Assembly: GCA_965248835.1 (NCBI GenBank)
Contig: CBDFLJ010000002.1
Location: 2,048,001-2,112,000 of the forward strand
Reading direction: 5' to 3'
From: Alphaproteobacteria bacterium
GTDB lineage: Bacteria; Pseudomonadota; Alphaproteobacteria; MPNO01
Length of the DNA: 64,000 nt
Below, in pieces: positions 3,273-58,908 of the stretch. Under the pieces are notes generated by a model. It ran no database searches, was not told the DNA's origin, and saw only the letters and a list, made by a program, of their open reading frames with translations. The translations under genes were made by a program, and so were the position numbers. Positions within the stretch are counted from its first letter, which is position 1. The number at the start of each line of letters is the position of its first letter.

Positions 3273-4534
3273 GACAGCATCAGCGCGTTCCACTGGCGCC
3301 AGAACGCCCGCAGGTGCAGCTCGTCGGTATTCAACTGCTCGCCGTCCTTGTTCATGCCTCGCGAGATCTCCGACCAGCTGATCTCCCGCCAGGTCGCGAG
3401 CCCGTCCTGGACCGACTCCAGCGCTTCCACGTCGTCGGGCGTCGCCAGCCCGCCGGGGCCGTAGAACGTCAAGAAGCTGTCCAGGCGGCGGGCCCGCGAG
3501 GTCTCGGATTCCTCGACCGGGCCGCCGGCCCAGGCGGTCACCCGCATGCGATCGACCGCGGTCGGCCAGAAGGTGCGCACCGTCACCGCCGAGCCGTCGT
3601 TGATCACGAGGTTGGGGAAGACCACCAGGTTGCGGTTGGTATCGGCGATGCGCCGGGCCCGCTCTTCGCCCAGGCGCGCGACCAGCCCGGCACGGACCGC
3701 CTCGATCTCGGGTTTCGCGTCCGCGCCGTAGAGCGGGATCCAGGCGGCGATCGGCCGGCCGCGGAAATTGACGTTGTCGACCACCGCATGGCCGTTGCCC
3801 AGCGCCTTGCCGATGCCGCGGGTGGGCATCATCAGCCCCTTGCCCATGGCGACCGAGACGCCGGAGTCCTTCATGTAATCGAGATAGGTCGAATGGGTCG
3901 AATGCAGGTGATAGTCATCGAAGCTGTTCTCGACCAGAAGCTTCCAGTTTGCGCGGATGTCATATTCCTGGGTGCCTGAGACGATCTCCAGCCGCCCCGA
4001 CGGCGACTGATCGACGACCAGATCGATGTACTCGCGCGCGCCGGCCAGATAGTCCGCCAGCGCCTCGGCCCGCGCGCCGAAATGGGCGAACCAGAACCCG
4101 CGGTAGCTCTCCAGCCGCGGCACCTCGGCCAGCGCGAAATCGGCCTGGTCGAAGGCCTCGCCATAGGCGTCCTTGCCGGGAACGTTCCTGAGCGCGCCGT
4201 CGATGTCATAGGTCCAGCCGTGATAGAGGCAGGTGAAGCGCTGGCGGTTGCCTTCCCGTTCGCGGCAGACCACGGTGCCGCGGTGACGGCAGGAATTGAG
4301 GAACGCGCGGACGGTGCCGGCGTTGTCGCGCGCCAAGATGACCGGCCGGCCGGCCACGGTTCGGGTCCGGAAATCTCCCGGACTGCCGACCTCGGACTCG
4401 TGGCCGACATAGATCCAGCAGCGATCGAAGATCCGCGCGTGCTCGGCTTTCAGGATTTCCGGGTCGACCAGCACCGAACGGCTCAGCCGGAAACGTTCCC
4501 TCTCCGGCTCGTCGATGATAAAGGGACCGTCCAT
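3269..4534 (-). CDS. Rieske ring-hydroxylating dioxygenase alpha subunit (p-cumate dioxygenase-like)
   Basis: Rieske CRHRG-x15-CLYHGW; NWKLLVENSFDDYHLHSTH; TPDD. Real start MDGPFII at 4534 lies inside the 741 aa track ORF. Confidence 0.9.
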   Translation of the reverse strand: MDGPFIIDEPERERFRLSRSVLVDPEILKAEHARIFDRCWIYVGHESEVGSPGDFRTRTVAGRPVILARDNAGTVRAFLNSCRHRGTVVCREREGNRQRFTCLYHGWTYDIDGALRNVPGKDAYGEAFDQADFALAEVPRLESYRGFWFAHFGARAEALADYLAGAREYIDLVVDQSPSGRLEIVSGTQEYDIRANWKLLVENSFDDYHLHSTHSTYLDYMKDSGVSVAMGKGLMMPTRGIGKALGNGHAVVDNVNFRGRPIAAWIPLYGADAKPEIEAVRAGLVARLGEERARRIADTNRNLVVFPNLVINDGSAVTVRTFWPTAVDRMRVTAWAGGPVEESETSRARRLDSFLTFYGPGGLATPDDVEALESVQDGLATWREISWSEISRGMNKDGEQLNTDELHLRAFWRQWNALMLS

Positions 4535-4548
4535 CCTCAGCGGTGGGT

Positions 4549-5454
4549 TCAGGCGCCGCCGCCCGGCAGCGTGCCCGCGGGCAAGGATTCGATGTGATCG
4601 ACGACATCGCGCGGCCGGGTGAACCAGATCCGGTCGGCCCACTCGTGATTGAGGATGTATTTGAGAATCTTGCGGAGTTGCACCATGCGGGACGGCTGGC
4701 CGACGATGAAGGTGTGCAGCGACAGAGCGTAGCACAACGGCTGGTGCACGCACTGCTCCAGCATCTCGTCGACTTGGTCGATCACCATATCGGTGAACGC
4801 GCGCGCGGTGTGATGGCGGTTGAGCATCGCCGGCGAATCGTTGAGCTCCACCGGATAAGGCACCGACAGGATCCGTCCGTTGCGCGTCTTCATCCACACC
4901 GGCTGGTCGTCGATCGGCCAGTCGAGCACGTAGCGGTAGCCGTTCTCCTGCAGCACATCGAGCGTGGTCGCGGTCTCGGAGATCCACGGCCCGAGCCAGC
5001 CGCTGGGTTGGACACCTTCCTGCTGGCGCAGGATTTCGGTCGCCTCCTTGATCAGGACCGCCTCGTCTTCGGACGACAGATCTCCCTGGCGTTCGCTGTT
5101 GGTCCGGCCGTGGCCGACCACCTCGTCGCCGCGCGCGCGGATGCGGTCGATGATCTGCGGCGCGTAGTCGTAGATCGTCGTGTTCACCAGGTGGCAGGCC
5201 GGCAATTCCAGCTCGTCGAACAGATCGAGGATCCGCCAGACACCGACGCGCAACCCGTAGTCCCGCCAGGCGTAGTTGCGGATATCGGGCTGCGGCCCGG
5301 GCGCGGTGGGAGTGTGGCCCATCCCCTCGCCGAAATGGAAGTGCTCGACGTTCAGCCCGATATAGAACGCCAGCCGCTTGCCGCCCGGCCAGTCGTATTG
5401 CGGGCGCTCGACGATCGGCGAGTACTCGTAGCGGCCGTGCTTCTTCAGTTCCAT
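4549..5454 (-). CDS. Polysaccharide deacetylase family hydrolase (PuuE/allantoinase-like)
   Basis: WPGGKRLAFYIGLNVEHF, RDYGLRVGVWR, EVVGHG, GWLGPW, DDQPVW, PYPVELND, LHTFIVGQPSR. Confidence 0.88.
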   Translation of the reverse strand: MELKKHGRYEYSPIVERPQYDWPGGKRLAFYIGLNVEHFHFGEGMGHTPTAPGPQPDIRNYAWRDYGLRVGVWRILDLFDELELPACHLVNTTIYDYAPQIIDRIRARGDEVVGHGRTNSERQGDLSSEDEAVLIKEATEILRQQEGVQPSGWLGPWISETATTLDVLQENGYRYVLDWPIDDQPVWMKTRNGRILSVPYPVELNDSPAMLNRHHTARAFTDMVIDQVDEMLEQCVHQPLCYALSLHTFIVGQPSRMVQLRKILKYILNHEWADRIWFTRPRDVVDHIESLPAGTLPGGGA

Positions 5455-5500
5455 CGCGTGCCCCCTGGATCCATTCCTTGGCCGAACGGTACACAAACGA

Positions 5501-5896
5501 TCAGGGTTCGGGAACCACGGCGGTCGCTTCGATCTCGACCTTGGCGCGGTCCTCCATCAGGGCCGAGACCTCCACGGCAGCCATGACGGGATAGTTGCGC
5601 CCCATCACTTCGCGGTAGGCCGCGCCGACATCGGCGATGCTGTCCAGATATTCCCGCTTGGAGGTGAAATACATCGTCATCCGGACCACATGCTGGGGCC
5701 CTGCCCCGCCCTCGGCGAGGACGGCGCGGATGTTGAGCAGCGCCTGCCGGAACTGATCGGCGAAGTCGTCGCTTTCGAACGTTTCCTCGGGGGTCCAGCC
5801 GATCTGGCCGGCGACGAACACCAGCCTGCCGCTGGCCGATACGCCGTTGGAATAACCCTTGGGCCGCGGCCAGCCGGGCGGTTGCAGGATCTCCAT
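5501..5896 (-). CDS. RidA/YjgF family protein
   Basis: LQPPGWPRPKGYSNG, FVAGQIGW, YPVMAAVEVSAL, KVEIEATAV. Confidence 0.92.
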   Translation of the reverse strand: MEILQPPGWPRPKGYSNGVSASGRLVFVAGQIGWTPEETFESDDFADQFRQALLNIRAVLAEGGAGPQHVVRMTMYFTSKREYLDSIADVGAAYREVMGRNYPVMAAVEVSALMEDRAKVEIEATAVVPEP

Positions 5897-5930
5897 CGCG
5901 ACGATCTCCGAGTCTTGTCAGGAACAGGCG

Positions 5931-5952
5931 GTTGTTTTAAGTTTAAAATAAC
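5931..5952. promoter_or_regulatory. Imperfect palindromic operator (TTTA-N4-TAAA core), probable MarR site in a divergent promoter
   Basis: GTTGTTTTAAGTTTAAAATAAC, an AT-rich dyad between ridA and the SDR gene; same core recurs upstream of the gene starting at 16027. Confidence 0.65.
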
Positions 5953-5996
5953 TAGCCGACAGCCGTCCAGCCTGCCGCGGAGCAAAGACATCGCCT

Positions 5997-6824
5997 ATGA
6001 ACAGCGCCCTACCGAACCCATCCGGCGCGGGCCCCGCCGACGAAGCCGCGCCGCTCGCCGGTCGCCATGCGGTGGTCACCGGCGCCGGGCGCGGGATCGG
6101 CCGGACGATCTCAGAGACCCTGGCACGGCTGGGCGCGGATCTTACCCTGCTCGGCCGGAATCTCGAACGGCTGGCGGGCGCGGCCGCAAGCATCGGTGCG
6201 GCGTCGGGGGCGACGCCGCGGACCTTCGCGGGCGACGTTGCCGATGCCGATGCGATCGCGGCCGCGTTTGCGCGCGCGCGCGAGACCGCGGGCCCGGTTG
6301 CGATCCTGATCAACAACGCCGGTATCTCCGGCAGCGCGCCGTTCACCCGGACCGGCGCGGCACTCTGGCAGTCGATGCTGGAGACCAACCTGACCGGGAC
6401 CTTCCGCTGTACGCAGCTCGTCTATCCAGCAATGGTTGAGGCGGGCTGGGGCCGGATCGTCAACATCGCCTCGACCTCGGGGCTGAAGGGCTATGCCTAC
6501 ACCGCGGCCTATTGCGCCTCCAAGCACGGCGTGGTCGGCCTGACCCGAGCGCTCGCGCTGGAAGCCGCCAGGACGGGGGTCACCGTCAACGCCGTCTGCC
6601 CGGGCTTTACCGAGACCGGGATGGTCGCGGATACGCTGGCAAATATCGTCGAGAAGACCGGCCGGACCGAGGAGCAGGCCCGCGCCGAGCTTACGGCTCT
6701 GAACCCGCAGGGCCGCCTGGTCGACCCACAGGAGGTCGCCGATGCGGTTGCCTGGCTGTGCCTGCCGTCGTCGGGGGCAATCACCGGCCAGGCGATCGCG
6801 GTCGCCGGCGGCGAGGTGATGTGA
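5997..6824 (+). CDS. SDR family oxidoreductase
   Basis: TGAGRGIG, NNAG, YCASK, NAVCPGF. Confidence 0.92.
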   Translation: MNSALPNPSGAGPADEAAPLAGRHAVVTGAGRGIGRTISETLARLGADLTLLGRNLERLAGAAASIGAASGATPRTFAGDVADADAIAAAFARARETAGPVAILINNAGISGSAPFTRTGAALWQSMLETNLTGTFRCTQLVYPAMVEAGWGRIVNIASTSGLKGYAYTAAYCASKHGVVGLTRALALEAARTGVTVNAVCPGFTETGMVADTLANIVEKTGRTEEQARAELTALNPQGRLVDPQEVADAVAWLCLPSSGAITGQAIAVAGGEVM

Positions 6825-39162: not shown

Positions 39163-40049
39163 GCGCTCTCTCCATGGCGCGCGATCAGGGCGCGCATCGC
39201 ATCGGCCGCGGCCACGCCCTTGCGGGCCCGGCGCCAGAGATCCTCGACGGTCTTATCGTGCAGCGCCAGCGCCTCGGGCGCCGAGGTGATCATCGCAACG
39301 CCGGCGTGGATGTTGGGCTGCTCGCCCAGCCGGAAGGGGCTGAGCGCGAGCACCCGCCGGTCGGGCTGCCGGAAGATCTGGAAGCTGGTCGGCGGCAGGG
39401 TGCTCGGCACCAGGCCGATCTGGATGCCGATCGGCTGCGTGTCCATCAGCGAGACGAAATGTAGCGCCTCCGCCCGGGCGATCGCCAGCCGTTCACGCAC
39501 CACCGCGCCCGGCAGGTCGAGCCGACCGACCAGGCCGTTGCGCAGGAAGCGGCCCATCTCGGCCTCGGAGATCAGGTTGAGCACGCCGGGCCGGCGCGTG
39601 CGGTAGGCTTGCTTGCGTCCGTGCAGGATCTCCATCAGCTCGCCCACCAGGGCCAGCGCGCCGGCCCGGTCCTCCGCCCCATCGGGGATGCTTTCCGAAA
39701 GCACCGCCTCCAGGGTGTCCAGGAAGGCATCCGATGCCAGCAGGAACGAAATCGGCCCGGCCAGCACCACGATATGCTCGGACGTCTCCTCGATCTGGCG
39801 CAGCCGCTCGAAATAGCTGACGGCCGAGCCGATATATTCGACGCCGACGCCCAGGAGCGTCGGCACCGAGACCGCGAGCAGTTCGGCCAGCCGCTCCAGC
39901 GCCTCGATCTTTGCGACCTCGCCCTTCTCGAAGCGGTAGAGCGCGGTCCGCGAAATACCGATCCTTGCCGCCACCTCGTCCGCGCTCAGCCCCGAGCCCA
40001 GCCGGAAGGCGCGCAGCCGGTCCCCGATCTCGGCAAAGCGAATGCTCAT
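39159..40049 (-). CDS. XRE-family HTH regulator with a large C-terminal domain
   Basis: IGDRLRAFRLGSGLSADEVAARIGISRTALYRFEKG; ATGA overlaps at both ends. Confidence 0.88.
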   Translation of the reverse strand: MSIRFAEIGDRLRAFRLGSGLSADEVAARIGISRTALYRFEKGEVAKIEALERLAELLAVSVPTLLGVGVEYIGSAVSYFERLRQIEETSEHIVVLAGPISFLLASDAFLDTLEAVLSESIPDGAEDRAGALALVGELMEILHGRKQAYRTRRPGVLNLISEAEMGRFLRNGLVGRLDLPGAVVRERLAIARAEALHFVSLMDTQPIGIQIGLVPSTLPPTSFQIFRQPDRRVLALSPFRLGEQPNIHAGVAMITSAPEALALHDKTVEDLWRRARKGVAAADAMRALIARHGESA

Positions 40050-42340
40050 CCGGACAGCATAGCCACGATGTCGGCCGGCGAAACCGGGGCGGAAGATAAG
40101 CGGACGCCGCGGGCCGAGAGCGCGTCCTCGATAGCCGAGACGATGGCCGCTGCCGTCGGCACGACGCCGCATTCGCCGACACCCTTGACCCCGATGGGGT
40201 TGAGCGGGCTCGGCGATTCCTGGTGGACGGTGGCGATGCGCGGCATTTCCGGAGCGGAGACCAGCAGATACTCGGCCAGGCTCGTGGTCAAAGGCTGGGC
40301 CTCGTCGTCGAAGCCCATCCATTCGAACAGCGCGTTGCCCACCGCGTGCGCCGCGCCGCCGACGATCTGGCCCTCGACGATAGCCGGGTTGACGATGCGC
40401 CCGCAATCATGCGCCAGCACGAGGTTGAGCAGCCTCACGCCGCCGGTTTCGGGGTCGACCTCGAGCTCGGCCACCGCGGTCCCGTTGGCGAACGGCATGT
40501 CGTCGAGCACCAGGGCCTCGGTGGCGGCGAGCTCCGGCGCGATCCCGGCGGGCAGCGAGAAGCCGGGCGTGCCGGCGACCATCTCCGCAAGATGGCCGAG
40601 GGCGACAGAGATGTCCGGGGCGCCGCGCACCCGCACGTGTCCATCTGCGATCTCCAGATCCTCCGGCGCGGCTTCCAGGACGTGCGCCGCGATCGCCAGC
40701 GCCTTGTCGCGCACGCGGCGGGCCGCCTGGAACGCCGAGCTGCCGGCAGTCACCGCCTGGCGGCTGTTGAACCCGCCGATGCCGAGCGCGATCGCTGCCG
40801 TATCGCCGCTGGTGACCGCGATGTCAGACGGTCTGGCGCCGAGTTCGGCCGCGACCAGGCTGGCAAGCAGGGTCTCGATCCCCTGCCCCATCGCCGCGGC
40901 CCCGGTCGCGACCTCGATACGGCCCGAGGCGTCTATCCTGACGCTTGCCGATTCGAAGGGACCGCGCCCGGTGCCCTTGACGAAGTTGGCCACCCCGATG
41001 CCGCGCAGCCCGCCGGTTGCGGCAGCGCGGCGGCTCGGGAAGCCGTCCCAATCCGCCGCCGCGAGCGCCGCGGCCTGACAGGCCGGGTAGTCGCCGCTGT
41101 CGAGCACGACCGGCTTGCCGGCGCGGTTCTTGAGCGGGCGCGTGCACGGCATCCGTTCGGGCCCGATCAGGTTGCGCCGGCGGATCTCGTCGCGGCCGAG
41201 CCCGAGCATCCGGGCCGACCGGTCGAGCAGGCGCTCCATCACGAACACCGCTTGAGGATGGCCCGCACCACGGACCGGAGTGGCCGGCACCTTGTTGGTG
41301 AGCACCGCACGTGCACGCACGGCATAGGCCGGCACGTCGTACGGCAAGGTCACCGTGAGCGCGGATTCGTAAGGCAGGTTGACCCCGCGCGCGGTGTAGG
41401 CGCCGTGGTCATGGGTGAGAGTGCCGCGAATGCCGCGGATCCGACCATCGGAGTCGAAGGCCGCCTCGAGCTCCCAATGCTGGTCGCGCTCCTGGGTGGC
41501 GGCGACGAAATGCTCGCGCCGATCCTCGATCCACTTGACCGGTGCCCCGACGATCAGGGCGGCGAGCGCGACCACGATCTCCTCGGGGTAGGTGACCAGC
41601 TTGGGGCCGAACCCGCCGCCGACCGCCGGTGTGGCCACCCGCACCGCGCTTTCCGGCCAGCCCAGCATGCCGGCCAGCACCTTGCGCCCGGCATGCGGGG
41701 TCTGGGTCGAGCTCCACAGGCTCAGCCGGTCCTCGAGCGGGTCGACCTGCGCCACCGCGCCGCGACCCTCGATCGAATGCCCGCCGCCGCGATGGATCGA
41801 GAACGACTCGGCGACGACAAGGGGCGCGCCGGCAAATGCGGCTTCGATGTCGCCGAAGCCCGTCTCGAGCTCGGCCAACAGGTTGTGCGGCGCATCGCGA
41901 TGGACCGTCGGGGCGCCAGCGGCCATCGCATCGCGGCAGTCGGCGACCACCGGCAGCGGCCGGTAATCGACTTCGACAAACGGCACCGCATCCTCGGCGC
42001 GATAGCGGCTGTCGGCGATCACCATCGCCACCGGCTCGCCGACATGGACGACCTCGCCGGCGGCAAGCACCGGGCGGTCGCGCATCTGCTGGTAGGCCGG
42101 GCTCGGCAGCCCGACCACCAGCCGCTCGGCGGCAAGATGCGGGCGCAGGTCATCGATCGTCAGCACCGCGCGAACGCCGGGGCGGCCAAGCGCGGCGTCC
42201 TTTTCGATGCCGGCGACCGCGGCATGGGCGTAAGCGCTGCGCACGAAGGCCGCATGCAGCATGCCCGGCAGATGAATGTCGTCGACGAAGCGGGCCCGGC
42301 CGCGCAACAGCCGGGGGTCCTCGACCCGCGCCTCAGCCAC
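40046..42340 (-). CDS. Xanthine dehydrogenase family molybdopterin-binding large subunit (CoxL-like, not a form I CODH)
   Basis: RVEDPRLLRG, VGGGFGPK, PVKWIEDRRE, TPVRGAGHPQ, DSGDYP, MGQG, HDCG..VNP..VEGQ..GG, KGVGE. Confidence 0.92.
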   Translation of the reverse strand: MAEARVEDPRLLRGRARFVDDIHLPGMLHAAFVRSAYAHAAVAGIEKDAALGRPGVRAVLTIDDLRPHLAAERLVVGLPSPAYQQMRDRPVLAAGEVVHVGEPVAMVIADSRYRAEDAVPFVEVDYRPLPVVADCRDAMAAGAPTVHRDAPHNLLAELETGFGDIEAAFAGAPLVVAESFSIHRGGGHSIEGRGAVAQVDPLEDRLSLWSSTQTPHAGRKVLAGMLGWPESAVRVATPAVGGGFGPKLVTYPEEIVVALAALIVGAPVKWIEDRREHFVAATQERDQHWELEAAFDSDGRIRGIRGTLTHDHGAYTARGVNLPYESALTVTLPYDVPAYAVRARAVLTNKVPATPVRGAGHPQAVFVMERLLDRSARMLGLGRDEIRRRNLIGPERMPCTRPLKNRAGKPVVLDSGDYPACQAAALAAADWDGFPSRRAAATGGLRGIGVANFVKGTGRGPFESASVRIDASGRIEVATGAAAMGQGIETLLASLVAAELGARPSDIAVTSGDTAAIALGIGGFNSRQAVTAGSSAFQAARRVRDKALAIAAHVLEAAPEDLEIADGHVRVRGAPDISVALGHLAEMVAGTPGFSLPAGIAPELAATEALVLDDMPFANGTAVAELEVDPETGGVRLLNLVLAHDCGRIVNPAIVEGQIVGGAAHAVGNALFEWMGFDDEAQPLTTSLAEYLLVSAPEMPRIATVHQESPSPLNPIGVKGVGECGVVPTAAAIVSAIEDALSARGVRLSSAPVSPADIVAMLSG

Positions 42341-42878
42341 CGTGTTCGGGCGGTAGCGCGAGGGTGCCGAAGAAGATCTGCATCCCGTAGTGGAAGGCGA
42401 TGAAGGCGCCGAGATCCATGATCCCGGCCTCGCTGTAGTGGGTCTTGCCTTCCTCGTAGAACGCCTTGTCGACCCGCTTGGGCTCGCGGAACATCAGCCA
42501 GGCGTAGCGCAGCGCCCATTTCTCCGCCGGCGAGAACCGCAGATCGGTCTCGAAATCGCCGCAGCCGGCTTCGATCATGTCCTCGGTGAGCCCCGCCTCC
42601 TGGGCGCGCTTGGACCGCAAAGCGGAAAAATAGGGATCGTTCGCGAGCCGGGCGAGCTGGATGCGGATAATCTCCTTCAGCCGGTGGTCGAGGTTGCCGC
42701 CGGCATGCGAGCGCTCCAGCGCATCGTGCAGCGTCTCGGCATAGCCCGGCACATGGGCGAGCAGCCGAACAAACCGACTGTCGGGCACGCCGGCCTCCTC
42801 GGAGCGGGCGATCAGGGCCTGGAGCGTCTCGTCCCCGATCGCCTCGCGGGGCACCGGCTTGATCACGGCGCGGCCCAC
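42333..42878 (-). CDS. AhpD/CMD-like protein lacking the redox CxxC (DPYF)
   Basis: LDHRLKEIIRIQLARLANDPYFSALRS...GLTEDMI...FSPAEK; clear paralog of the upstream gene. Confidence 0.85.
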   Translation of the reverse strand: MGRAVIKPVPREAIGDETLQALIARSEEAGVPDSRFVRLLAHVPGYAETLHDALERSHAGGNLDHRLKEIIRIQLARLANDPYFSALRSKRAQEAGLTEDMIEAGCGDFETDLRFSPAEKWALRYAWLMFREPKRVDKAFYEEGKTHYSEAGIMDLGAFIAFHYGMQIFFGTLALPPEHGG

Positions 42879-42882
42879 CGCC

Positions 42883-43530
42883 CTACTCCGCAGCCGGCGC
42901 GAGGCCGGCGCGCCGGGCCGCCCCCTTCAGGTGCGAGACCGGGCTGTCGCCGTAGATCCGCCGCGACTCCGCCTGATCGACCAGTCGGCCGTCCGGGGTG
43001 AACATCGGGAAGAAATCGAGCGTGCCGAAGAAGGTGTGGAAGCCGATGTTGAAACCGACGAAGGCCCCGAGCTCGACGATCTCCGCGACCGTGTAGTGCT
43101 CTGCGAGTTCCTCGTAGAACGCCGCATCGATCTTCTCGGGCGCGGTGGCCATAAGCTCGCTATAGAGAAGGGCGATCTTCTCGGCCGGCGTGAAGCGCTG
43201 CGAGCCGGCATGGTTGTCGATGCCCTCGTCGATCAGATCTTCCGTGAGGCCCTGCTGCTTCGCCGAAGCAGACCGGACATTGCCTCAATAGTTGCAATCG
43301 GCCATCCGCGAGAGTTGCACGCGAATGACCTCCTTGAGCTTGTGATCGATCTGCCCGGTGTTGAAAACCGCCCCCCAGGCCAGGTACATCGCGCGCGAAA
43401 GATCCGGGTTATGACCCATCATCGCATGAAACGCGGGATCCGGCGCCTTGTGCCGCAACGCCTTGTTAATCAGCGGTTTCAGGCTGGTCTTCTTGAGATC
43501 GTCGATGTCGAGCATCGAAATGTTGGGCAT
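42883..43530 (-). CDS. AhpD/CMD-like putative selenoprotein (CxxU, Sec at codon 82, 215 aa)
   Basis: Track ORFs 43285..43554 and 42883..43152 are one frame separated only by TGA: RMADCNY-U-GNVRSASAKQQGLTEDL; downstream hairpin; final stop TAG. Confidence 0.85.
43246..43287 (-). promoter_or_regulatory. Candidate bacterial SECIS element
   Basis: UGA+13 nt, then CTGCTTC-GGC-GAAGCAG; possible lower stem GAGGC/GCCTC. Confidence 0.6.
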
Positions 43531-43590
43531 AGCCGGATTGCTCCCGAAGCGCATGTACTCATCAGGATGCCAATGACATCATGCGCGGTC

Positions 43591-43626
43591 AATATAAGCA
43601 GGCGGTTCTGCTGTTTGAAACGGCAG
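43591..43626 (-). promoter_or_regulatory. Candidate promoter (TTCAAA-17-TATATT) overlapped by the palindrome CTGCTGTTTGAAACGGCAG
   Basis: Dyad at 43608-43626 with 8 of 9 arm positions matching, covering the putative -35. Confidence 0.45.
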
Positions 43627-43850
43627 TTCAATTTTCGACTCGACGGCTCGCGAGAGTTTCTCGATCTCCACACGATAGCCGGGCCGATCACGGGCCGCGA
43701 TCACGGCGCCGGCGCAGCGACCGGGAATGGAAGCATGCTCGACCTGCCCGGAGACGTTCGAATCTTGACTCGGATCGAGGACACCGGTGATCTTCTTATC
43801 GGAGGCGAGGTTGAACTCGCCGTCGGCTTTCCAACCAGACGAGGCGGGAC

Positions 43851-45203
43851 ATGGCAGACTCTCATCCGCAATACTGGGCGGGTCCGATCGAGACCGCGAG
43901 CCGCGAGGAACTGCGCGCCTGGCAGGAGGAGCGGCTCGCTCCCCTGGTCGATTGGCTGGGCGAACGCTGCCCTTACTGGCGACGGAAATTCGGCGAGATC
44001 GGCATCGCGCCCGGCGACGTCAGGACGCTCGAGGACCTCGCCGCCCTGCCCCACGTCACCAAGGCGATCTATGCCGAGAACATGGACGCCAACCCGCCCT
44101 ACGGCGACTTCCTGTGCTATCCGGAAGAGGAGGTCCACCGCATGGGTGCGATCGTCTTCCGGACGACCGGGACGACCGGTCGGCAGCGCTGGTTCATCAA
44201 CACGCATGAGGGCTACCAGCATTTCGGCAACCAGGGACTCCGCTGCCTGTGGTGCGCCGGCATCCGCCCCGGCGAAATGGTGATGTCGATCCTGCCGCTG
44301 TCGCTGTGGTCGGCCGGCTGGGGGTTCTATTACGGATGCCGCAAGGCCGGCATGACCTACCTGTCGGCGGGGCCGCCCTACGACACGCGCATGCGGCTCG
44401 ATCTGATCGGCGACTACCGCCCGGCGGCGATCTGCCTGACCCCGTCCTACGCGCTGACGCTGGCAAGCGCCGCGCAGGAGAACGGGATCGACATCAAGAA
44501 CGCCGGCGTCCGCGCGCTGATCATGGGCGGCGAGCCGTTCCCCGAGTCGCGTCGGCGCAAGATCGAGGAGGCCTGGGGCATCCCCGGCGGGGCGCGGGAT
44601 TTTTCCGGCATCACCGAGGGCGGGCCGCTCTACATGGGCTCGGAGTGCGATGCCCAACAGGGCGAGCACCTCTACGAGGACGAGGCGATCTTCGAGTTCG
44701 TCGAGATCGGCGGAACCAAACCGGTCGGGCCGGGTGAGCTGGGCGAGTTGGTCTTCACCGCGCTGAACCAGCGGGTGATGGGCACCAGCTTCCATTACCG
44801 CACCGGCGATATCGTCCGCTATAGAGAGGAACCGTGCTCCTGTGGCCGCACCCATCGGCGGATCAACGGCATCGAGGGGCGGGTCGACGACATGGTCAAG
44901 GTGCGCGGCGTGAATATCTTCCCTTCGGCGATCGAAGAGATCATCCGCCAGATCCCGAGCCTCGCCGACGACTTCATGCTGGTGCTCGAACGCGGCACGG
45001 CCGGCGACGAGGTGACGGTCGAGGTCGAGCCGGCCTCGGGTCTGGAGACCGGCAGCTACGCCGATGCAGGCGGCGCGCTCGAGGCCGAACTGCGCCGGGC
45101 GATGGCGATCCGCATCCCGGTGCGCATCGCCGAGCCCGGCTCGTTGCCCCGGTTCGAGCTCAAGGCCCAGCGCTGGATCGACCGCCGACCGGACGAGGGT
45201 TAG
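43851..45203 (+). CDS. Phenylacetate-CoA ligase family protein (PaaK-like)
   Basis: RTTGTTG, TPSYA, GGEP, GELVFT, YRTGD, GRVDDMVKVRGVNIFPS. Confidence 0.88.
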   Translation: MADSHPQYWAGPIETASREELRAWQEERLAPLVDWLGERCPYWRRKFGEIGIAPGDVRTLEDLAALPHVTKAIYAENMDANPPYGDFLCYPEEEVHRMGAIVFRTTGTTGRQRWFINTHEGYQHFGNQGLRCLWCAGIRPGEMVMSILPLSLWSAGWGFYYGCRKAGMTYLSAGPPYDTRMRLDLIGDYRPAAICLTPSYALTLASAAQENGIDIKNAGVRALIMGGEPFPESRRRKIEEAWGIPGGARDFSGITEGGPLYMGSECDAQQGEHLYEDEAIFEFVEIGGTKPVGPGELGELVFTALNQRVMGTSFHYRTGDIVRYREEPCSCGRTHRRINGIEGRVDDMVKVRGVNIFPSAIEEIIRQIPSLADDFMLVLERGTAGDEVTVEVEPASGLETGSYADAGGALEAELRRAMAIRIPVRIAEPGSLPRFELKAQRWIDRRPDEG

Positions 45204-45213
45204 GCGGGCCGGC

Positions 45214-45990
45214 CTACCAACCGGCGCCCTCGGGCAGGCGCAAACCCGTCGCGCGGACCTCCGCGGGCGTCGGTGCTCGCAGCTTCAGCCGGTCCATAAC
45301 CGGCATCACGTTGCCCAGCCAGATCGGAAGCTGGTCCTCGCTGTCTTCCTTCTTGAGTCCGTAATAGTGGAATTTCTGCTGCTTTTCGCTGCGCGGATTG
45401 CCCAGCAGGCGGATCGACTTGGCGAACCACTCATCGACGCTTTCCTGGACCCTTGCCCGCGCCTGGCCTCCGTTGTCTTCGATGTGCCGGATCAGATGGA
45501 CCGGCCCCCCCTCGGCATGCTCCTCCTCCTCGGCGATGATGGCCTGGTTGGCGTCGGCATAGGGCGCATAGCTCGAATCGCGCATCGACCACAGGAACAA
45601 CCGGCCGCTCTCCTCGGCAAGCCAGTTGAACACCAGCACGTCCTCCCAATTGCGCGGGAAGTCCGCGGCGCCGTAAAAGTCCGCCGCGAACGGCCGGTCG
45701 TGGTTCCTGAACAGGCTGTAGTCCAGCCCGATACCGGGAAGGATGCCGGCAATGACCTGGCAGTGCTCGGATTCCTCCTCCGCCAAGTGGGCGCAGTAGA
45801 GCACCTTGTCAGGCCCTTCCCGATAGAAATGGGAAGCCGCCTTGGCGAAGATGCACGCTGCGGACAACTCTTCCAGGAGCTGGCGAGAGACCACCCAGCG
45901 GAGCAGGTCCTTGTACTCCTGCGGCGTGGTCTCGAACGTCTCTTCGGTGATCTCCCGCGGGACGTAAATCGGCGTGACCATGTCGGACAT
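45214..45990 (-). CDS. PaaA/PaaC/BoxB-like ferritin-fold diiron protein
   Basis: EEESEH and EEEEH motifs, DSSYAPYA, VDEWF, YGLK; GGAGG RBS. Confidence 0.75.
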   Translation of the reverse strand: MSDMVTPIYVPREITEETFETTPQEYKDLLRWVVSRQLLEELSAACIFAKAASHFYREGPDKVLYCAHLAEEESEHCQVIAGILPGIGLDYSLFRNHDRPFAADFYGAADFPRNWEDVLVFNWLAEESGRLFLWSMRDSSYAPYADANQAIIAEEEEHAEGGPVHLIRHIEDNGGQARARVQESVDEWFAKSIRLLGNPRSEKQQKFHYYGLKKEDSEDQLPIWLGNVMPVMDRLKLRAPTPAEVRATGLRLPEGAGW

Positions 45991-47361: not shown

Positions 47362-48105
47362 TCAGATCTGTGCGTGACCGCCGTCGACCATCAGCTCCGA
47401 GCCGGCCATGAAGCGTGAATCCGACGAGGCGAGGAAGACCGCGGCGCGCGCGATCTCGCTCGGATCGCCGAAACGCTTCATCGGCACGTCGGCGAGCAAG
47501 ATCTGATCGCGGTTCTCCAGGACCTCCCGCGGCAGTCCCATCTTCTCGAAGATCGGCGTTTCGACCGGGCCGGGGCTGAGCACGTTGACCCGGATCCCGC
47601 GTGGCACCAGGGCGGCGCACAGCGTCCGGCCGAGCGACCGGATCGCGGCCTTGGTCGCGGCGTAGACCGCCTGCTCGGCGACTCCCAGATGCCCGAGAGC
47701 CGAGGACAGAAGGATGACGGAGCCGCCGTCCTTCAGATACGGCAGCGCCTTCTGCACGGTGAAGAAGGTGCCCTTGAAGTTGGTCTCCGACATGGCTGCG
47801 AACGTCGCCTCGTCGACGTCCTCGAACGGACGGGCCAGCGAGATGCCGGCGTTGGCGACGACGACGTCGATCCGCCCGAAATGGTCGTGGGCATCGTGAA
47901 ACAGCCGCTCGAGATCGGACACCGCGCGGACATCGCCCGAGACCGCGAGGCTTTTCGGAAGCTCCGCCCGCGCCGCCTCGAGCGCCGCCGCGTCGCGCCC
48001 GAAGATCGCCACCTGGGCGCCTTCGACCGTGAACGCTCCGGCGATCGCACGCCCGATGCCGCTGGAGCCGCCGGTTACCACGGCCACGAGCCCTTCGAGC
48101 CTCAT
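47362..48105 (-). CDS. SDR family oxidoreductase
   Basis: TGGSSGIG, ANAG, YAATK, SPGPVETP. Confidence 0.92.
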   Translation of the reverse strand: MRLEGLVAVVTGGSSGIGRAIAGAFTVEGAQVAIFGRDAAALEAARAELPKSLAVSGDVRAVSDLERLFHDAHDHFGRIDVVVANAGISLARPFEDVDEATFAAMSETNFKGTFFTVQKALPYLKDGGSVILLSSALGHLGVAEQAVYAATKAAIRSLGRTLCAALVPRGIRVNVLSPGPVETPIFEKMGLPREVLENRDQILLADVPMKRFGDPSEIARAAVFLASSDSRFMAGSELMVDGGHAQI

Positions 48106-48234: not shown

Positions 48235-49314
48235 CTAAGCCCGCCGCGGGACAAGGACCGTGTAGTCGAGGTCGAGCACGACGGCAGGATCGTACTTGCC
48301 GGCACCGTCGCGGTCGGGGAACTCCTCGCAGGTGCGGTTCTTGAGGGCGAGCGTGCGGATGCGCAGGGCGCCGACATCGGTCCGGCCGGGCAGCACCATC
48401 TTGTGCAGGACCTCGGTCCAGGCATGGAGCGTGTCGCCTGCAAAGGCCGGTGCGGTGTGGCGCCCGGCATTGATCGCGGCCACCTTGAAGGCATTCGGGA
48501 AGCCGTTGAACGTCAGGCTCCGGGCGAGGCCGATGACGTGGCCGCCCATGACCACGCGGCGCCCGAAGCGGCTGTCCGCGCTCAACTGCGCATTGAAATG
48601 GATCGGTGCGGGGTTCTGGGAAAGCCGCGTCAGCATCATGTGCTCGGCCTCCTCGATGGTGAGGCCGTCGCGGTGGTCGATCCGCTCACCCGGCGCGTAG
48701 TCGTCCCAGAAATAGGGCCCGCCCGCCCGGACAGTGTCATAGGCCGTCAGATCCAACGCCGTGGGCACGACGACCGCCTCGGCCGGCACCGCCGGGGGAA
48801 GCTCCGGCACGCAAGGCTCCGGCGCGGCCGATGCCGGATCACGCTTGCGCACCAGGACCCAGCGCACATAGGACGCGACGACCTCCTCGCGCTGGTTGAC
48901 GCCGATGGTGCGGACATAGACCACGCCCGCCTGCCCGCTGGAGGCCTCGCGGAGACCGATTACCGTCGAGGCGGCGCGCAGCGTGTCGCCGGGATAGACG
49001 AACCCGTCGAGCCGCCCGTCGGCGTAGCCGAGGTTCGAGACCGCGTTGAACGAGATGTCGGTAACCGTCTTGCCGAGGATGACGTTGAACACCAGGACAT
49101 CGTCGATCGGTGTCGTCTCCAGGCCCAGCCCCCTGGCGAACTCCCGGGAGGAATTGACCACGAACCGCGAGCCGGAAAGCGCGAGGTTAAGGGCCGCATC
49201 GCCCTCGGTGAGCGTGCGGGGACCCGCATGAACGATCTCCTGGCCCGCGCGGAAATCTTCAAAGAAGTTGCCGCGCGCGGCCTTGTCGCCGATCGTTTGC
49301 TTGCGTGAGGTCAT
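48235..49314 (-). CDS. Double MaoC dehydratase (mesaconyl-CoA hydratase / beta-methylmalyl-CoA dehydratase-like)
   Basis: GNFFEDF, GKTVTDISFNAVSNLGY, WVLVRKRD, GERIDHRDG.TIEEAEH, INAGRHTAP, VVLDLDY. Confidence 0.85.
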   Translation of the reverse strand: MTSRKQTIGDKAARGNFFEDFRAGQEIVHAGPRTLTEGDAALNLALSGSRFVVNSSREFARGLGLETTPIDDVLVFNVILGKTVTDISFNAVSNLGYADGRLDGFVYPGDTLRAASTVIGLREASSGQAGVVYVRTIGVNQREEVVASYVRWVLVRKRDPASAAPEPCVPELPPAVPAEAVVVPTALDLTAYDTVRAGGPYFWDDYAPGERIDHRDGLTIEEAEHMMLTRLSQNPAPIHFNAQLSADSRFGRRVVMGGHVIGLARSLTFNGFPNAFKVAAINAGRHTAPAFAGDTLHAWTEVLHKMVLPGRTDVGALRIRTLALKNRTCEEFPDRDGAGKYDPAVVLDLDYTVLVPRRA

Positions 49315-49420
49315 CGAGTGCCGTCTGCACGCTATCCTACCGCCGAGGATCGAGCCGCGCCAATATACGCGGGCCGCACGCAAGCCGTCCTGAGGGCGGG
49401 AAGAGATCGGGAGAGAGACG

Positions 49421-50230
49421 ATGACGACGCAATACGGATCTTACACCGGCCTGAAATTCGCCTGGCCCATGAAGCGGGTGCTCGAGGTGATCTTCGACCG
49501 CCCCGGCAAGCTCAACGCGCTCACCGAGCAGATGCACCGCGAGCTCGGCACGATCTGGCGCGACGTCGATGCCGACCCGGAGGTCTCTTGCGTGTTGCTG
49601 CGCGGTGCAAACGACGTCTATTCGGCCGGCGGCGACCTGTCGCTGGTCCACGAAATGACCGAAAGCTTCGATGCACGGGCGAAAATCTGGCGGGAAACCC
49701 GCGACCTCGTCTACAACGTGATCAACTGCTCCAAGCCGATCGTCGCCGCGATCAACGGCCCCGCGGTGGGAGCAGGGCTCGCCGCGGCGCTGCTGGCGGA
49801 CATCTCCATCGCCGCCAGGACGGCGCGGATCATCGACGGCCACACGCGGCTGGGCGTCGCCGCGGGCGACCACGCGGCAATCATCTGGCCGCTGCTGTGC
49901 GGCATGGCGAAGGCCAAATATTACCTGCTGCTGTGCGAGCAGATCAGCGGCGAGGAAGCCGAGCGCATCGGGCTTGTCTCGATGTGTGTCGACGACGACC
50001 GGCTCTATGACAGTGCGCTGGAGGTGTGCGGCAAGCTGGCCGCAGGCGCGCCGTCGGCCATAAGCTGGACCAAATACGCCCTCAACAACTGGCTCCGGAT
50101 GGCCGGACCCATCTTCGATACATCGCTCGCGCTGGAGATCCTCGGCATGACCGGACCGGATGTGGAGGAAGGCGTCCGGTCGCTGCGCGAGAAACGCCCG
50201 CCGGCGTTCGTTCCCGGAGGCGGGGTTTAG
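49421..50230 (+). CDS. Enoyl-CoA hydratase/isomerase family protein
   Basis: [26 protein letters not shown]. Confidence 0.92.
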
Positions 50231-50244
50231 GCCATGTCCGCCGA

Positions 50245-51867
50245 TCAATGCGCGCGGCGTTCGCGGACCATCCGCACGAGCTCGTGCCGCTGGATCTTGC
50301 CGGTCGGGGTGAACGGGAACTCGTCGAAGATCTCCATCGTCTCGGGCAGCTTGTAGGTTGCGACCTGATCCTGGAGCAGCGCCACGAAGTCCTCAAGCGC
50401 GGCGTCCTCGCCGGGCCGTGGGATCACGCACAGGCAGTTGCGCTCGCCCAGCCTTGGATCGGCGATGCCCACGATCGCGGCATGCAGGACCTTGGGGTGG
50501 GTGTAGAGGATCTCCTCGATCTCGCGCGGATGGAACTTCTTGCCGCCGCGGTTGATCATCTCCTTGTTGCGGCCGACGATCTTCAGGTTGCCCCGCTCGT
50601 CGAACGCGCCGATGTCGCCGGTGCGGAACCAGCCGCCGCTGGTGAAGAGCTCGGCGTTCGCGGTCGGGTTCTTGGCATAGCCCAGATGAACCGAGGGGCC
50701 GATCGCTGCGATCTCCCCCTCGCCGCCCTCGGGCATGTCGCCGCCGCTCTCGTCGACCAGCCTCAAGCCCAGCGACTTCTGGGGCCGCCCGCACGTGCCG
50801 CTGACCAGCTCAGGGTCGTCGGACAGCCGCGTATAGGTGTGAAAACCGGTCTCCAGCATGCCGTAAAGCTCGGTGAATTCGCCCTTCATCTTGGCCTGGA
50901 ACTCGCGGATGGTCTCCAGCGGGCAGGATGCGCCCCCGCTCATCACGACCCTGACCGAGGACAGATCGAATGTCTCCAGGTCGGGCTCGTTCAGCATGGC
51001 AATGATGGAGGCCGGCGCGGTCGGGATGAACGTCACCCGCTCATCGGCGATGAGCCGCAGGGCGCCGCGGGCGCTGAACCGGTCGAGCAGCACCGCGCGG
51101 GCGCCGGCGAGCAGCGTCTGCAGGAGGGCGAGATAGCCCCAGTTCAGCCCGAGCGGCAGGTAGATCAGGATCACGTCGTCTTGGGTGATCGCCAGATCCT
51201 CGTTCTGGTAGATCGCCGTCGGCAGCGTGGTGTTGTGCGTATGAAGAACCGCCTTCGGATTGCCGGTCGTCCCCGAGGTGAAGGCCATGCGGAAGATCTC
51301 GTTGGCGCCGGTCTCGACGGGATGCAGAGGCCCGACGGGCTCGGATCCCTCGATCACCCCGGCCAGCGGCACCACGCCCTCCCCGCCCGCGCCCTCGACC
51401 ACGCAGACATGGCGCAGGTCGGGGAGGCCGGGGCGCAGCGCCGCGACCATCTTCAGATAGTCGAAATCCCGGAAGGTCTCGGGACAGATATAGGCCGCGC
51501 TTTCGGAAAAGCGCAGGATGTAGTCGACCTCGGCGCTGCGAAAATCCGGGTTGATCTGGTTCGCGATCCCACCGATGCGCTCGACGGCGAAGAAGGCGCA
51601 GGCAAACGCGATCCAGTTGGGCAACTGGATGGTCACCACCTCGCCGCGCCCGATGCCGAGCGCCTGCAACTTGGCGGCCACGCGATCGACCCGCTGCCGC
51701 AGCTCGCCATAGGTGATGCGCCTGCCGCGGTCATACAGCGCCTCCCGGTCGGGGTGGGCGTCAGCCCGCTCGGCAAGGAGATCGAAGAACGTCCTGGTGC
51801 CCCAATCGCCCGACCTGGTGTAGGCCTCGATCATCTCTTGCGTCAGGCGCGTTTCGAATCTCGGCAT
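50245..51867 (-). CDS. AMP-binding acyl-CoA ligase (cyclohexanecarboxylate-CoA ligase-like)
   Basis: FTSGTTGNPK, YGMLE, WFRTGD, RGGKK, TPTGKIQ. Confidence 0.9.
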   Translation of the reverse strand: MPRFETRLTQEMIEAYTRSGDWGTRTFFDLLAERADAHPDREALYDRGRRITYGELRQRVDRVAAKLQALGIGRGEVVTIQLPNWIAFACAFFAVERIGGIANQINPDFRSAEVDYILRFSESAAYICPETFRDFDYLKMVAALRPGLPDLRHVCVVEGAGGEGVVPLAGVIEGSEPVGPLHPVETGANEIFRMAFTSGTTGNPKAVLHTHNTTLPTAIYQNEDLAITQDDVILIYLPLGLNWGYLALLQTLLAGARAVLLDRFSARGALRLIADERVTFIPTAPASIIAMLNEPDLETFDLSSVRVVMSGGASCPLETIREFQAKMKGEFTELYGMLETGFHTYTRLSDDPELVSGTCGRPQKSLGLRLVDESGGDMPEGGEGEIAAIGPSVHLGYAKNPTANAELFTSGGWFRTGDIGAFDERGNLKIVGRNKEMINRGGKKFHPREIEEILYTHPKVLHAAIVGIADPRLGERNCLCVIPRPGEDAALEDFVALLQDQVATYKLPETMEIFDEFPFTPTGKIQRHELVRMVRERRAH

Positions 51868-57727: not shown

Positions 57728-58825
57728 TCAAGCCAGCGCGTCGATGCCGAGTTCGGCGCGGATTTCCGCGGTGTTGGCCTCCTTGACCGCCTCCAGCGGG
57801 ATGCCGGTCGCATCGGCCACCCGGTCGAGTGCGCTGTAGTTGGCGATGACGGCTGCCGCATCGACCAGCCCGGCATCGCCCACCGCATCGCGGAGCCGCC
57901 GACGGGCCGCACCCAGCCGGGGCTGGTCATCGCCGAGCACCGCCTCGACGAAGTCGATCAACTGCGCGCCGTACCGCACCCCGCCGCCGCCGGCACCGCC
58001 CATGACCGCCTTGAAATCGATGTCCTCGCCGGTGGCATTTGCGCTCGCACGGAGCATCTCAACATGGGTGGTGGTTCAGTAGAAGCACCCGTTGATCGCC
58101 GAGACCCGTCCGGCGATCAACTCCATCTGGGCGCGCGTGATGGCACGGTGGCGGGACGCGGGATCGGCCATGAACGCGGGCGGGAGGTATTGCGCATCGA
58201 CCATGTCGAACAGGCCGCAGGCCTCGGCCGGCACCAGGCTCAGGGCGCACCGAATATAGGTCGGATCGGGCGAGGGATAGACCTTCTCCAGACACGCCTC
58301 GTCCGCGGTCATGTCTGCGGGCGCCAGCATCGCGACCCACGCCGGCCCGGGTTTCGCGCCGACGGGGCGCACGCGCGACGGCGCGCCGGCCGTGGGCTGC
58401 GGCAGCGGATGGAGCGGCACGCCGAGAGCCCGGGCGAAGATGTCCACGGCGATCGTGGTCACCACCACGCCGATGGTCTCGACGAACGCTTCTTCGCTGA
58501 GGCCGCCGGCGATCGCGCGCTCGTACCAGGCGCGGGTGAGCCTGCCGGGGTCGGTAGCGGTCCGGTGGACGACCTCCACCACGATTTCAGGCAGATCGCC
58601 CAGGCCCCTGTGTCCGCCGGCAACCGCATAAGGTGTCAGCGCCGCCTTGGCCTCGCGGCAGTAACCGCAGCGCGCGGCGTTCCGCGTCTCCGCGGCGATT
58701 GCGATCCGCCGCTCGGCGTCCCACCACGTCCCCGGCTCGGCAAGACGCTGCCAGGCCCGTCGGTGCGCCGCCGTCAGGTCCTGCCGCACCGGCGTCGCCG
58801 CTGCATCGTAGCTCAGCACAGCCAC
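57728..58825 (-). CDS. Alkylhydroperoxidase (AhpD)-related putative selenoprotein (CxxUxxxH, about 365 aa)
   Basis: Track ORFs 58076..58882 and 57728..58057 are in frame across one TGA: RVSAINGCFY-U-TTTHVEMLRAS; hairpin downstream; start uncertain (58825-58882). Confidence 0.85.
58036..58078 (-). promoter_or_regulatory. Candidate bacterial SECIS element
   Basis: After UGA: CAT(G)TTG(AGA)TGCTC-CGTGC-GAGCG CAA ATG; GU in the apical loop at +26/+27. Confidence 0.55.
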
Positions 58826-58908
58826 CGCCGGTCCCCGGTCATGACGATACCGATAATGTGCATACGGCGTTCGGTCCATCAAGGCGGCCGGACGCGGCGC
58901 GGGCCGGT

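Follow-up and report, generated by a model that had tools for sequence, protein, structure and literature searches.

On its minus strand, the window—the 64,000-nucleotide stretch of alphaproteobacterial DNA analysed here (assembly GCA_965248835.1, contig CBDFLJ010000002.1, positions 2,048,001 to 2,112,000)—holds a reading frame for a protein of the AhpD/CMD superfamily that is interrupted by a TGA at the second position of a CxxC motif. Is this the remnant of a broken gene, or is the UGA read as selenocysteine (Sec)? From the comparison of sequences we regard it as very probable that 43530..42883 is a single, unbroken gene whose product is a selenoprotein of 215 residues, with UGA codon 82 read as Sec. 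Selenoproteins of this kind are known from ocean metagenomes since 2005, and the window gene is an unannotated instance of them.

Read from its ATG, the frame proceeds through C79-N-Y-[TGA, codon 82]-G-N-V-R-S and stays open for 133 codons beyond the TGA, up to a TAG. Direct reading of the sequence thereby bears out what an earlier note on this DNA had stated on the place of the TGA within C-N-Y-[TGA]-G and on the open frame behind it. Its further observations on the letters hold as well: the product aligns continuously across the TGA with an adjacent paralog (42878..42333), the two sharing 39–41% identity, and a 7-bp hairpin with a G in its loop begins at 43271—the 14th base after the UGA. 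Under genetic code table 11, the gene is split into two open reading frames (ORFs) of 89 residues apiece.

Three samples of relatives describe how codon 82 is kept. A six-frame search of 61 related genomes returned an orthologue in 16 of them (75–100% identity; the 16 fall into three genera of a single family). A second scan, in which each prokaryotic species was represented by one genome, gave 162 relatives, of which 80 loci with 64–92% identity were kept, and a metagenome sample, for which the database homologue P0005 served as query, gave 342 relatives, of which 80 loci with 76–93% identity to P0005 were kept. The 16 and 80 genome loci amount to 96 sequences with 94 distinct coding sequences, two places being common to both samples. 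Codon 82 is TGA in 16/16 related-genome, 80/80 species and 80/80 metagenome loci—that is, in 176 of 176, including two duplicates—and neither TGG nor TGC nor TGT occurs at this codon in any of these close loci. Each of the 16 related-genome orthologues contains exactly one in-frame TGA, which is codon 82 and lies within C-[NRT]-Y-TGA-G. The record labels of the species sample span Rhodospirillales, Rhodospirillaceae, Nitrospinaceae, Chloroflexota, Acidimicrobiia, Nitrospirota, Burkholderiales/Betaproteobacteria, Xanthobacteraceae, and others. At larger distance, the position is taken by cysteine: four of four homologues of the same order (32–34% identity) read C-E-[FY]-C-G-N-Q-R without a stop, and a profile search of sequences in the PDB aligns a Cys of both Bmp8 (C-M-Y-C) and PA0269 (C-A-Y-C) with U82. 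The expectation that homologues would show either TGA or Cys at codon 82 is thus satisfied by the close loci in the one way and by the distant ones in the other.

The sequence downstream of the TGA behaves like that upstream of it. All 96 orthologues share the position of the start codon (ATG, GTG, or TTG), and past the TGA all of them keep the frame open, without an insertion or deletion, to a codon between 204 and 228. The mean ratio of nonsynonymous to synonymous differences (pN/pS) is 0.264 for codons 1–81 and 0.289 for codons 96–181 (4371 pairs), with pS at about 0.71 in both parts of the gene, i.e., with synonymous differences close to saturation. Since the two ratios are alike, selection at the protein level is the same downstream of the TGA as upstream of it. 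TGA nevertheless serves as an ordinary stop in these organisms, as 12 of the 16 related-genome orthologues terminate at one.

Decoding of UGA as Sec requires a dedicated machinery, and the earlier note had named the presence of selABCD as a check. The genome of the window consists of two contigs, with the window on the contig C2. All four genes are present: a tRNA-Sec (74.7 bits; anticodon tca, called as tRNA-SeC by ARAGORN), selA (559 bits) next to selB (444 bits) on the contig C1, and selD (309 bits)—each scoring above its curated cut-off. In the closest complete relative, G002, a single contig carries both the orthologue and selB. Among the 16 orthologue-bearing genomes, 15 have selB, and the exception is a metagenome-assembled genome (MAG) that is 64% complete. 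As a discriminator, selB was tried and proved uninformative, being present in 56 of the 61 related genomes.

In bacteria, the selenocysteine insertion sequence (SECIS) has a small apical loop with a G as its hallmark, according to the available text of PMC1088965. Folding of the window sequence gives CUGCUUC-GGC-GAAGCAG, with a 7-bp stem, so that the folding check was borne out: close behind the UGA there is a conserved hairpin whose small loop contains a G. Its 12-base core is fixed in 95–96 of the 96 aligned sequences. At codons 89 and 90, the four-fold degenerate third base never changes among the distinct sequences (94/94), whereas 13 further four-fold sites in the gene, all with an invariant prefix, use three or four bases, the commonest at a frequency of 0.47–0.80; the exception among these is codon 87, which is restricted to T and C and is the same base as the covarying stem position. 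Stem pairs were counted over the 84 distinct rows of the alignment: pair 2 is UA in 40, CG in 36, UG in 8, and unpaired in none. On a FastTree phylogeny built without codons 83–95, this pair switches between U-A and C-G at least three times, with the U-G clade nested among C-G sequences, and one metagenome copy shows a second double change, from U-A to C-G, at a different stem pair. Five sequence variants of 45 nt fold into the same hairpin top. An extended lower stem (UGAGGC/GCCUCA), as suggested by the fold of the window's own sequence, was rejected because its 3′ side is not kept in relatives; three intermediate pairs of it are unpaired in 12, 35, and 32 of the 84 rows.

The effect of such a codon on annotation can be appreciated from the protein databases. 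A large protein database yielded 271 relatives, 120 of them listed. Among the latter, 96 have at most 151 residues and start at protein positions 71–99, which makes them the downstream halves of split genes; the earlier claim that standard pipelines split this gene is borne out by these 96 fragments among 120 listed relatives.

What kind of protein would be made by reading through the UGA? The 215-residue product matches the Pfam family CMD (PF02627) with 34.2 bits at a cut-off of 23. No NCBIfam model reaches its cut-off for this protein: the best, NF053654 (YciW-related (seleno)protein), scores 57.7 bits against a cut-off of 310, and TIGR01926 (peroxid_rel) scores 30.4 against 81.8. An AlphaFold2 model from a 98-sequence alignment is all-helical, with a predicted local distance difference test (pLDDT) of 89, a predicted template modelling score (pTM) of 0.85, and the last 16 residues disordered. 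Foldseek places Bmp8, PA0269, and 'peroxidase-related' AhpD-core proteins of the PDB next to this model at E values of 2e-5 to 2e-3; 22 PDB matches reach E ≤0.001, and among the matches listed they are of AhpD/CMD type throughout. An alkyl hydroperoxide reductase of Deinococcus radiodurans also matches, with template modelling (TM) scores of 0.71/0.81. The profile search gives the same order, with Bmp8 at E 4e-14 and PA0269 at E 2e-12.

Bmp8 (PDB 6ohi, 6ohj) is thus the best solved relative by profile and by fold (TM 0.66/0.75). With 195 residues and a C-M-Y-C motif it resembles the window protein; it differs by its low identity of 21–22%, by having Cys instead of Sec, and by belonging to a bromopyrrole biosynthesis cluster. 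PA0269/AhpD of Pseudomonas aeruginosa (PDB 2ijc, 2o4d, 7xw1) shares the AhpD-core fold, with a TM of 0.77–0.83 on the target, and its C-A-Y-C aligns with C-x-Y-U, while it has Cys in place of Sec, counts only 145 residues without the N- and C-terminal extensions, and bears a His where the window family has an Arg. This Arg86 is invariant in 98/98 aligned sequences and stands opposite the PA0269 His that belongs to the AhpD motif CxxCxxxH. The AhpD of Mycobacterium tuberculosis (PDB 1gu9, 1lw1), which is the founding member of the superfamily and carries its CxxC redox centre on a helical core of the same kind, is a weak fold match to the window protein (E 0.4–0.9, TM 0.38–0.47). In AhpD, it is the second Cys that makes the attack.

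By analogy with AhpD-type proteins, the window protein most likely acts as a thiol/selenol oxidoreductase. In the mechanism that we propose, the putative hairpin 14 bases after the UGA would recruit SelB carrying Sec-tRNA(Sec)—as suggested by the conservation of the hairpin and by the machinery in the genome—and codon 82 would be decoded as Sec. The product would then fold into an all-helical AhpD core that bears the redox centre C79-x-x-U82. The selenolate of U82 would attack an oxidised substrate, for instance a peroxide or a partner protein in its oxidised form, C79 as the presumed resolving Cys would resolve the intermediate to an internal selenenylsulfide, and a cellular thiol reductant would restore the enzyme.

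The selenoprotein gene does not stand alone. Four bases after its stop starts the paralog mentioned above, which has D-P-Y-F where the selenoprotein has C-x-Y-U. In 93 of 94 loci, the next gene downstream, in the same orientation, is a homologue of this Cys-less paralog, and the 94th locus ends too early. In 61 partner sequences D81, Y83, R88, and E69 are conserved, with the Asp, Tyr, and Arg surrounding the dead site. Moreover, 15 of the 120 listed database proteins are fusions of 281–371 residues, in which the C-terminal part of the selenoprotein and the full partner lie in one frame, joined by a linker of 40–60 residues rich in Pro, Ala, Ser, and Gly; for three of the 15, the source is an NCBI record of a SAR324 or a Betaproteobacteria MAG. 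The fusions suggest that both proteins act jointly, and together with the constant adjacency they lead us to propose that the selenoprotein probably works as a hetero-oligomer with its paralog. The distant Cys homologues have no Cys-less partner as neighbour within their loci. For the pair itself, one alphaproteobacterial MAG (L075) offers a peculiar setting: here selenoprotein and partner lie between a divergent selA and a Pyr_redox_2-SelD fusion gene (flanking genes at 1423–2838 and 4318–6576), the fusion combining a pyridine-nucleotide disulfide oxidoreductase domain with SelD-type AIRS domains, which brings the pair into the direct vicinity of the Sec machinery.

A number of observations weigh against reading the locus as a conventional AhpD selenoprotein gene, and have to be set beside this evidence. 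At the RNA level, four of the seven stem pairs do not vary in the 84 rows and hence carry no information, 10 rows break pair 1 and 6 break pair 3, and pairing in the three lower positions is weak; the covariation comes down to about three events, on a tree with 44 of 91 inner branches poorly supported. The folding energy is ordinary, with z at -0.38 for 71 nt and at -0.4 to -2.1 for the five 45-nt variants. RNAalifold, run on the 96 sequences, did not recover the 7-bp stem and returned only a 3-bp GC-UUCG-GC alternative, and an Rfam scan of 42800–43700 at E up to 10 found no SECIS family and two chance matches. We prefer the 7-bp stem over the RNAalifold alternative because the five variants fold into it and because pair 2 covaries. 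The contamination estimate of the genome is 9.5%. Concerning the protein, the CxxCxxxH active site is taken as defining AhpD proper, and the His four residues after the second Cys is here replaced by the invariant Arg86; the 215-residue product therefore does not look like a textbook AhpD, and its chemistry may differ from that of AhpD. Concerning the genomic context, a conserved wider operon was considered and rejected: the 57 flanking ORFs of 18 loci hold no recurrent family, those seen more than once being aminotransferase class III (three loci), HMGL-like (two), and creatininase (two). The conserved unit is the two-gene pair, and the genes beyond it change between lineages. Two last points of this sort, an additional stop codon and tryptophan-bearing database entries, lead over to other explanations of the TGA.

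A pseudogene would be a CxxC AhpD-like gene cut by a nonsense mutation or by an assembly error, and the two table 11 fragments look like one. The metagenome copy L187, one of 80 such loci, also carries an extra in-frame stop at the conserved Trp52, i.e., at codon 52; damage to this copy, an error of assembly, or another cause may lie behind it. For the window gene we give this explanation next to no credence: the same TGA recurs in all 176 loci from independent assemblies and several phyla, no orthologue has Cys at codon 82, neither a frameshift nor a further stop occurs in any of the 96 genome loci, and a pN/pS after the TGA that resembles the one before it excludes a decaying downstream part. 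It is also very improbable that the UGA is read as Trp or Cys, be it by another genetic code or by near-cognate suppression. The earlier note had named Trp in homologues as a finding that would count against Sec, and five full-length and two near full-length database proteins, known as protein entries, indeed have W at residue 82. Among DNA sequences, the 80 loci closest to one of these proteins, P0005, have TGA in 80/80 and TGG in none, so that the W is most likely a TGA which the gene caller translated under a code with TGA as Trp. The exact coding locus of P0005 was not found among the metagenome loci translated under table 4. Four of the five full-length W-bearing proteins stem from contigs of 806–1319 bases, and contigs this short may prompt a caller to choose such a code. 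Furthermore, orthologues ending at TGA in the very same genomes, the full Sec machinery, and the missing rationale for a Trp at a CxxC redox position followed by a conserved hairpin all argue against read-through with an ordinary amino acid.

If the protein is a true selenoprotein, its activity might still be another one than the reduction of peroxides or disulfides—that of a reductive dehalogenase like Bmp8, or a role in serving a molybdenum hydroxylase, for example by handling its cofactor or sulfur. Bmp8 is the nearest solved structure (fold E 2e-5), and it removes bromine by a reaction in which two cysteines are oxidised to a disulfide, according to the available text of PMC5577590, which lends a dehalogenase reading some plausibility. 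In the window, the pair moreover overlaps a molybdenum hydroxylase gene. Nonetheless, we consider such an activity unlikely. The identity to Bmp8 is small and AhpD proteins of the PA0269 type score nearly as well; among the Pfam matches of the neighbours scanned there are neither bromopyrrole-cluster genes nor a halogenase; and of the 94 loci only 15, which all belong to the family of the window, have the hydroxylase beside the pair, with no more than a 45-residue match being left of it in the nearest relative, L022. A thiol/selenol oxidoreductase stays our preferred reading for the chemistry.

A more far-reaching idea can be entertained tentatively, although we think it doubtful: selenoprotein (C-x-Y-U) and redox-dead partner (D-P-Y-F) might form an obligate two-subunit hetero-oligomer, which would have been passed on as one module among at least six phyla, would be fused in some Betaproteobacteria and SAR324, and whose chemistry would maybe be nearer to that of Bmp8 than to peroxide reduction. 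If true, the two-subunit Bmp8-like reading would make the pair a reductive dehalogenase that depends on selenium—a bacterial counterpart to the deiodinases of animals. Apart from this, the constant pairing and the occasional fusion provide a testable lead on the assembly of this protein group.

How does the window gene relate to the selenoproteins described so far? In the available text of the Sargasso Sea study of 2005, an 'AhpD-like protein' (COG2128) is represented by 27 sequences and a 'CMD domain-containing protein' (Pfam02627) by four (PMC1088965); the corresponding text of the GOS survey of 2008 gives 299 sequences for AhpD-like 1 and 70 for AhpD-like 2 (pfam02627) (PMC2398784). AhpD/CMD selenoproteins are relisted in the accessible parts of a 2026 review (PMC13188914) and a 2026 database paper (PMC13326102), with TIGR01926 as the review's model for the 'AhpD-like protein'. 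As far as these portions describe them, the published marine AhpD/CMD-like selenoproteins share with the window protein the superfamily, the CxxU, a SECIS after the UGA with a small G loop, and marine hosts. PMC1088965 and PMC2398784 thus agree, to the same extent, with what the earlier note says of AhpD-like CxxU selenoproteins in marine bacteria and of a SECIS lying just 3′ of the UGA. By its Pfam02627 hit and its CxxU, the window protein fits the CMD-like/AhpD-like 2 class, in a match by description and not by sequence. The pairing with a Cys-less paralog and the fusions are the only part of our findings that may be undescribed: no mention of them was found in the accessible parts of the AhpD/CMD selenoprotein literature, within which no search was aimed at pairing.

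For annotation, this means that protein databases largely lack, or miswrite with Trp, a selenoprotein that is widespread in marine and soil bacteria, because gene callers split the gene and because no NCBIfam model reaches its cut-off. The features of the locus and of its surroundings are collected in Table 1.

Table 1. Coordinates of the selenoprotein gene, its elements, and other genes discussed within the window
Feature	Position	Strand	Remarks
Selenoprotein gene, AhpD/CMD superfamily (very probable)	42883..43530	minus	215 residues, predicted Sec at 82; Pfam CMD and AlphaFold2 model
Start and stop codons	ATG at 43530; TAG at 42885-42883	minus	
UGA codon 82, second position of C-x-x-U	43285..43287	minus	TGA in all aligned close loci, Cys in distant homologues
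Cys79 codon TGC, first position of C-x-x-U	43294..43296	minus	Cys in 96/96 orthologues
GGGAG, Shine-Dalgarno-like (presumed function)	43541..43545	minus	10 bases before ATG 43530
Putative bacterial SECIS hairpin	43255..43271	minus	5′ arm 43271-43265, loop GGC 43264-43262, 3′ arm 43261-43255
Cys-less CMD paralog, presumed partner subunit	42333..42878	minus	181 residues; Pfam CMD 23.2 bits
Molybdenum hydroxylase large subunit (xanthine dehydrogenase/aldehyde oxidase type)	40046..42340	minus	Pfam Ald_Xan_dh_C, MoCoBD_1, MoCoBD_2
ORF of the coenzyme A-thioester cluster	43851-45203	plus	
ORF of the coenzyme A-thioester cluster	45214-45990	minus	
ORF of the coenzyme A-thioester cluster	47362-48105	minus	
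ORF of the coenzyme A-thioester cluster	48235-49383	minus	
ORF of the coenzyme A-thioester cluster	49421-50230	plus	
ORF of the coenzyme A-thioester cluster	50245-51867	minus	
Second AhpD-type selenoprotein gene (predicted)	57731-58879	minus	TGA 58078-58076; NF041238 457 bits, cut-off 175

Downstream of the pair, the start of the molybdenum hydroxylase gene overlaps the end of the paralog by 8 bases, and genes for a helix-turn-helix regulator and a transporter of the major facilitator superfamily follow. In the nearest relative (L022, from G002), the 764-residue hydroxylase gene is replaced by the 45-residue match, with the helix-turn-helix regulator next to it; this remnant lies about 1264–1398 bases after the selenoprotein start. 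The difference between L022 and the window is a recent loss or gain of the hydroxylase gene. On the other side, a gene for a PaaK-like ligase is divergent from the selenoprotein gene. It belongs to a cluster for the coenzyme A-thioester metabolism of aromatic or organic acids, in which Pfam matches identify the PaaK-like ligase, a PaaA/PaaC-like protein, a short-chain dehydrogenase/reductase, a MaoC/mesaconyl-CoA hydratase, an enoyl-CoA hydratase, and an AMP-dependent ligase.

The selenoproteins of L052 (labelled Chloroflexota) and of L059 and L062 (both labelled Nitrospinaceae), which are MAGs assigned to different phyla, are close sisters on the tree, with a support of 100. L052 and L062 also have neighbours in common, namely an aminotransferase class III and a creatininase. 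This likeness points to a binning error or a recent transfer.

A second, predicted selenoprotein gene lies within the window at 58879..57731 and is recognised by the curated model NF041238 (AhpD_rel_CFYUT). Like the 215-residue protein, its product is an AhpD-type selenoprotein with CxxU; it differs as a two-domain protein of 383 residues with C-F-Y-[TGA]-T-T-T-H, i.e., C-F-Y-U-T-T-T-H, and it has a CxxC in its N-terminal half. An uncultured alphaproteobacterial lineage would accordingly hold at least two AhpD-type selenoproteins within one 64-kb window. Elsewhere in the same genome, an AhpD-like frame at C2:185430-185855 shares 22–27% identity with the 215-residue protein. It contains exactly one in-frame TGA, both in its own genome and in about a dozen relatives, and has matches in many genomes of genus g6; it is possibly a third CxxU selenoprotein.

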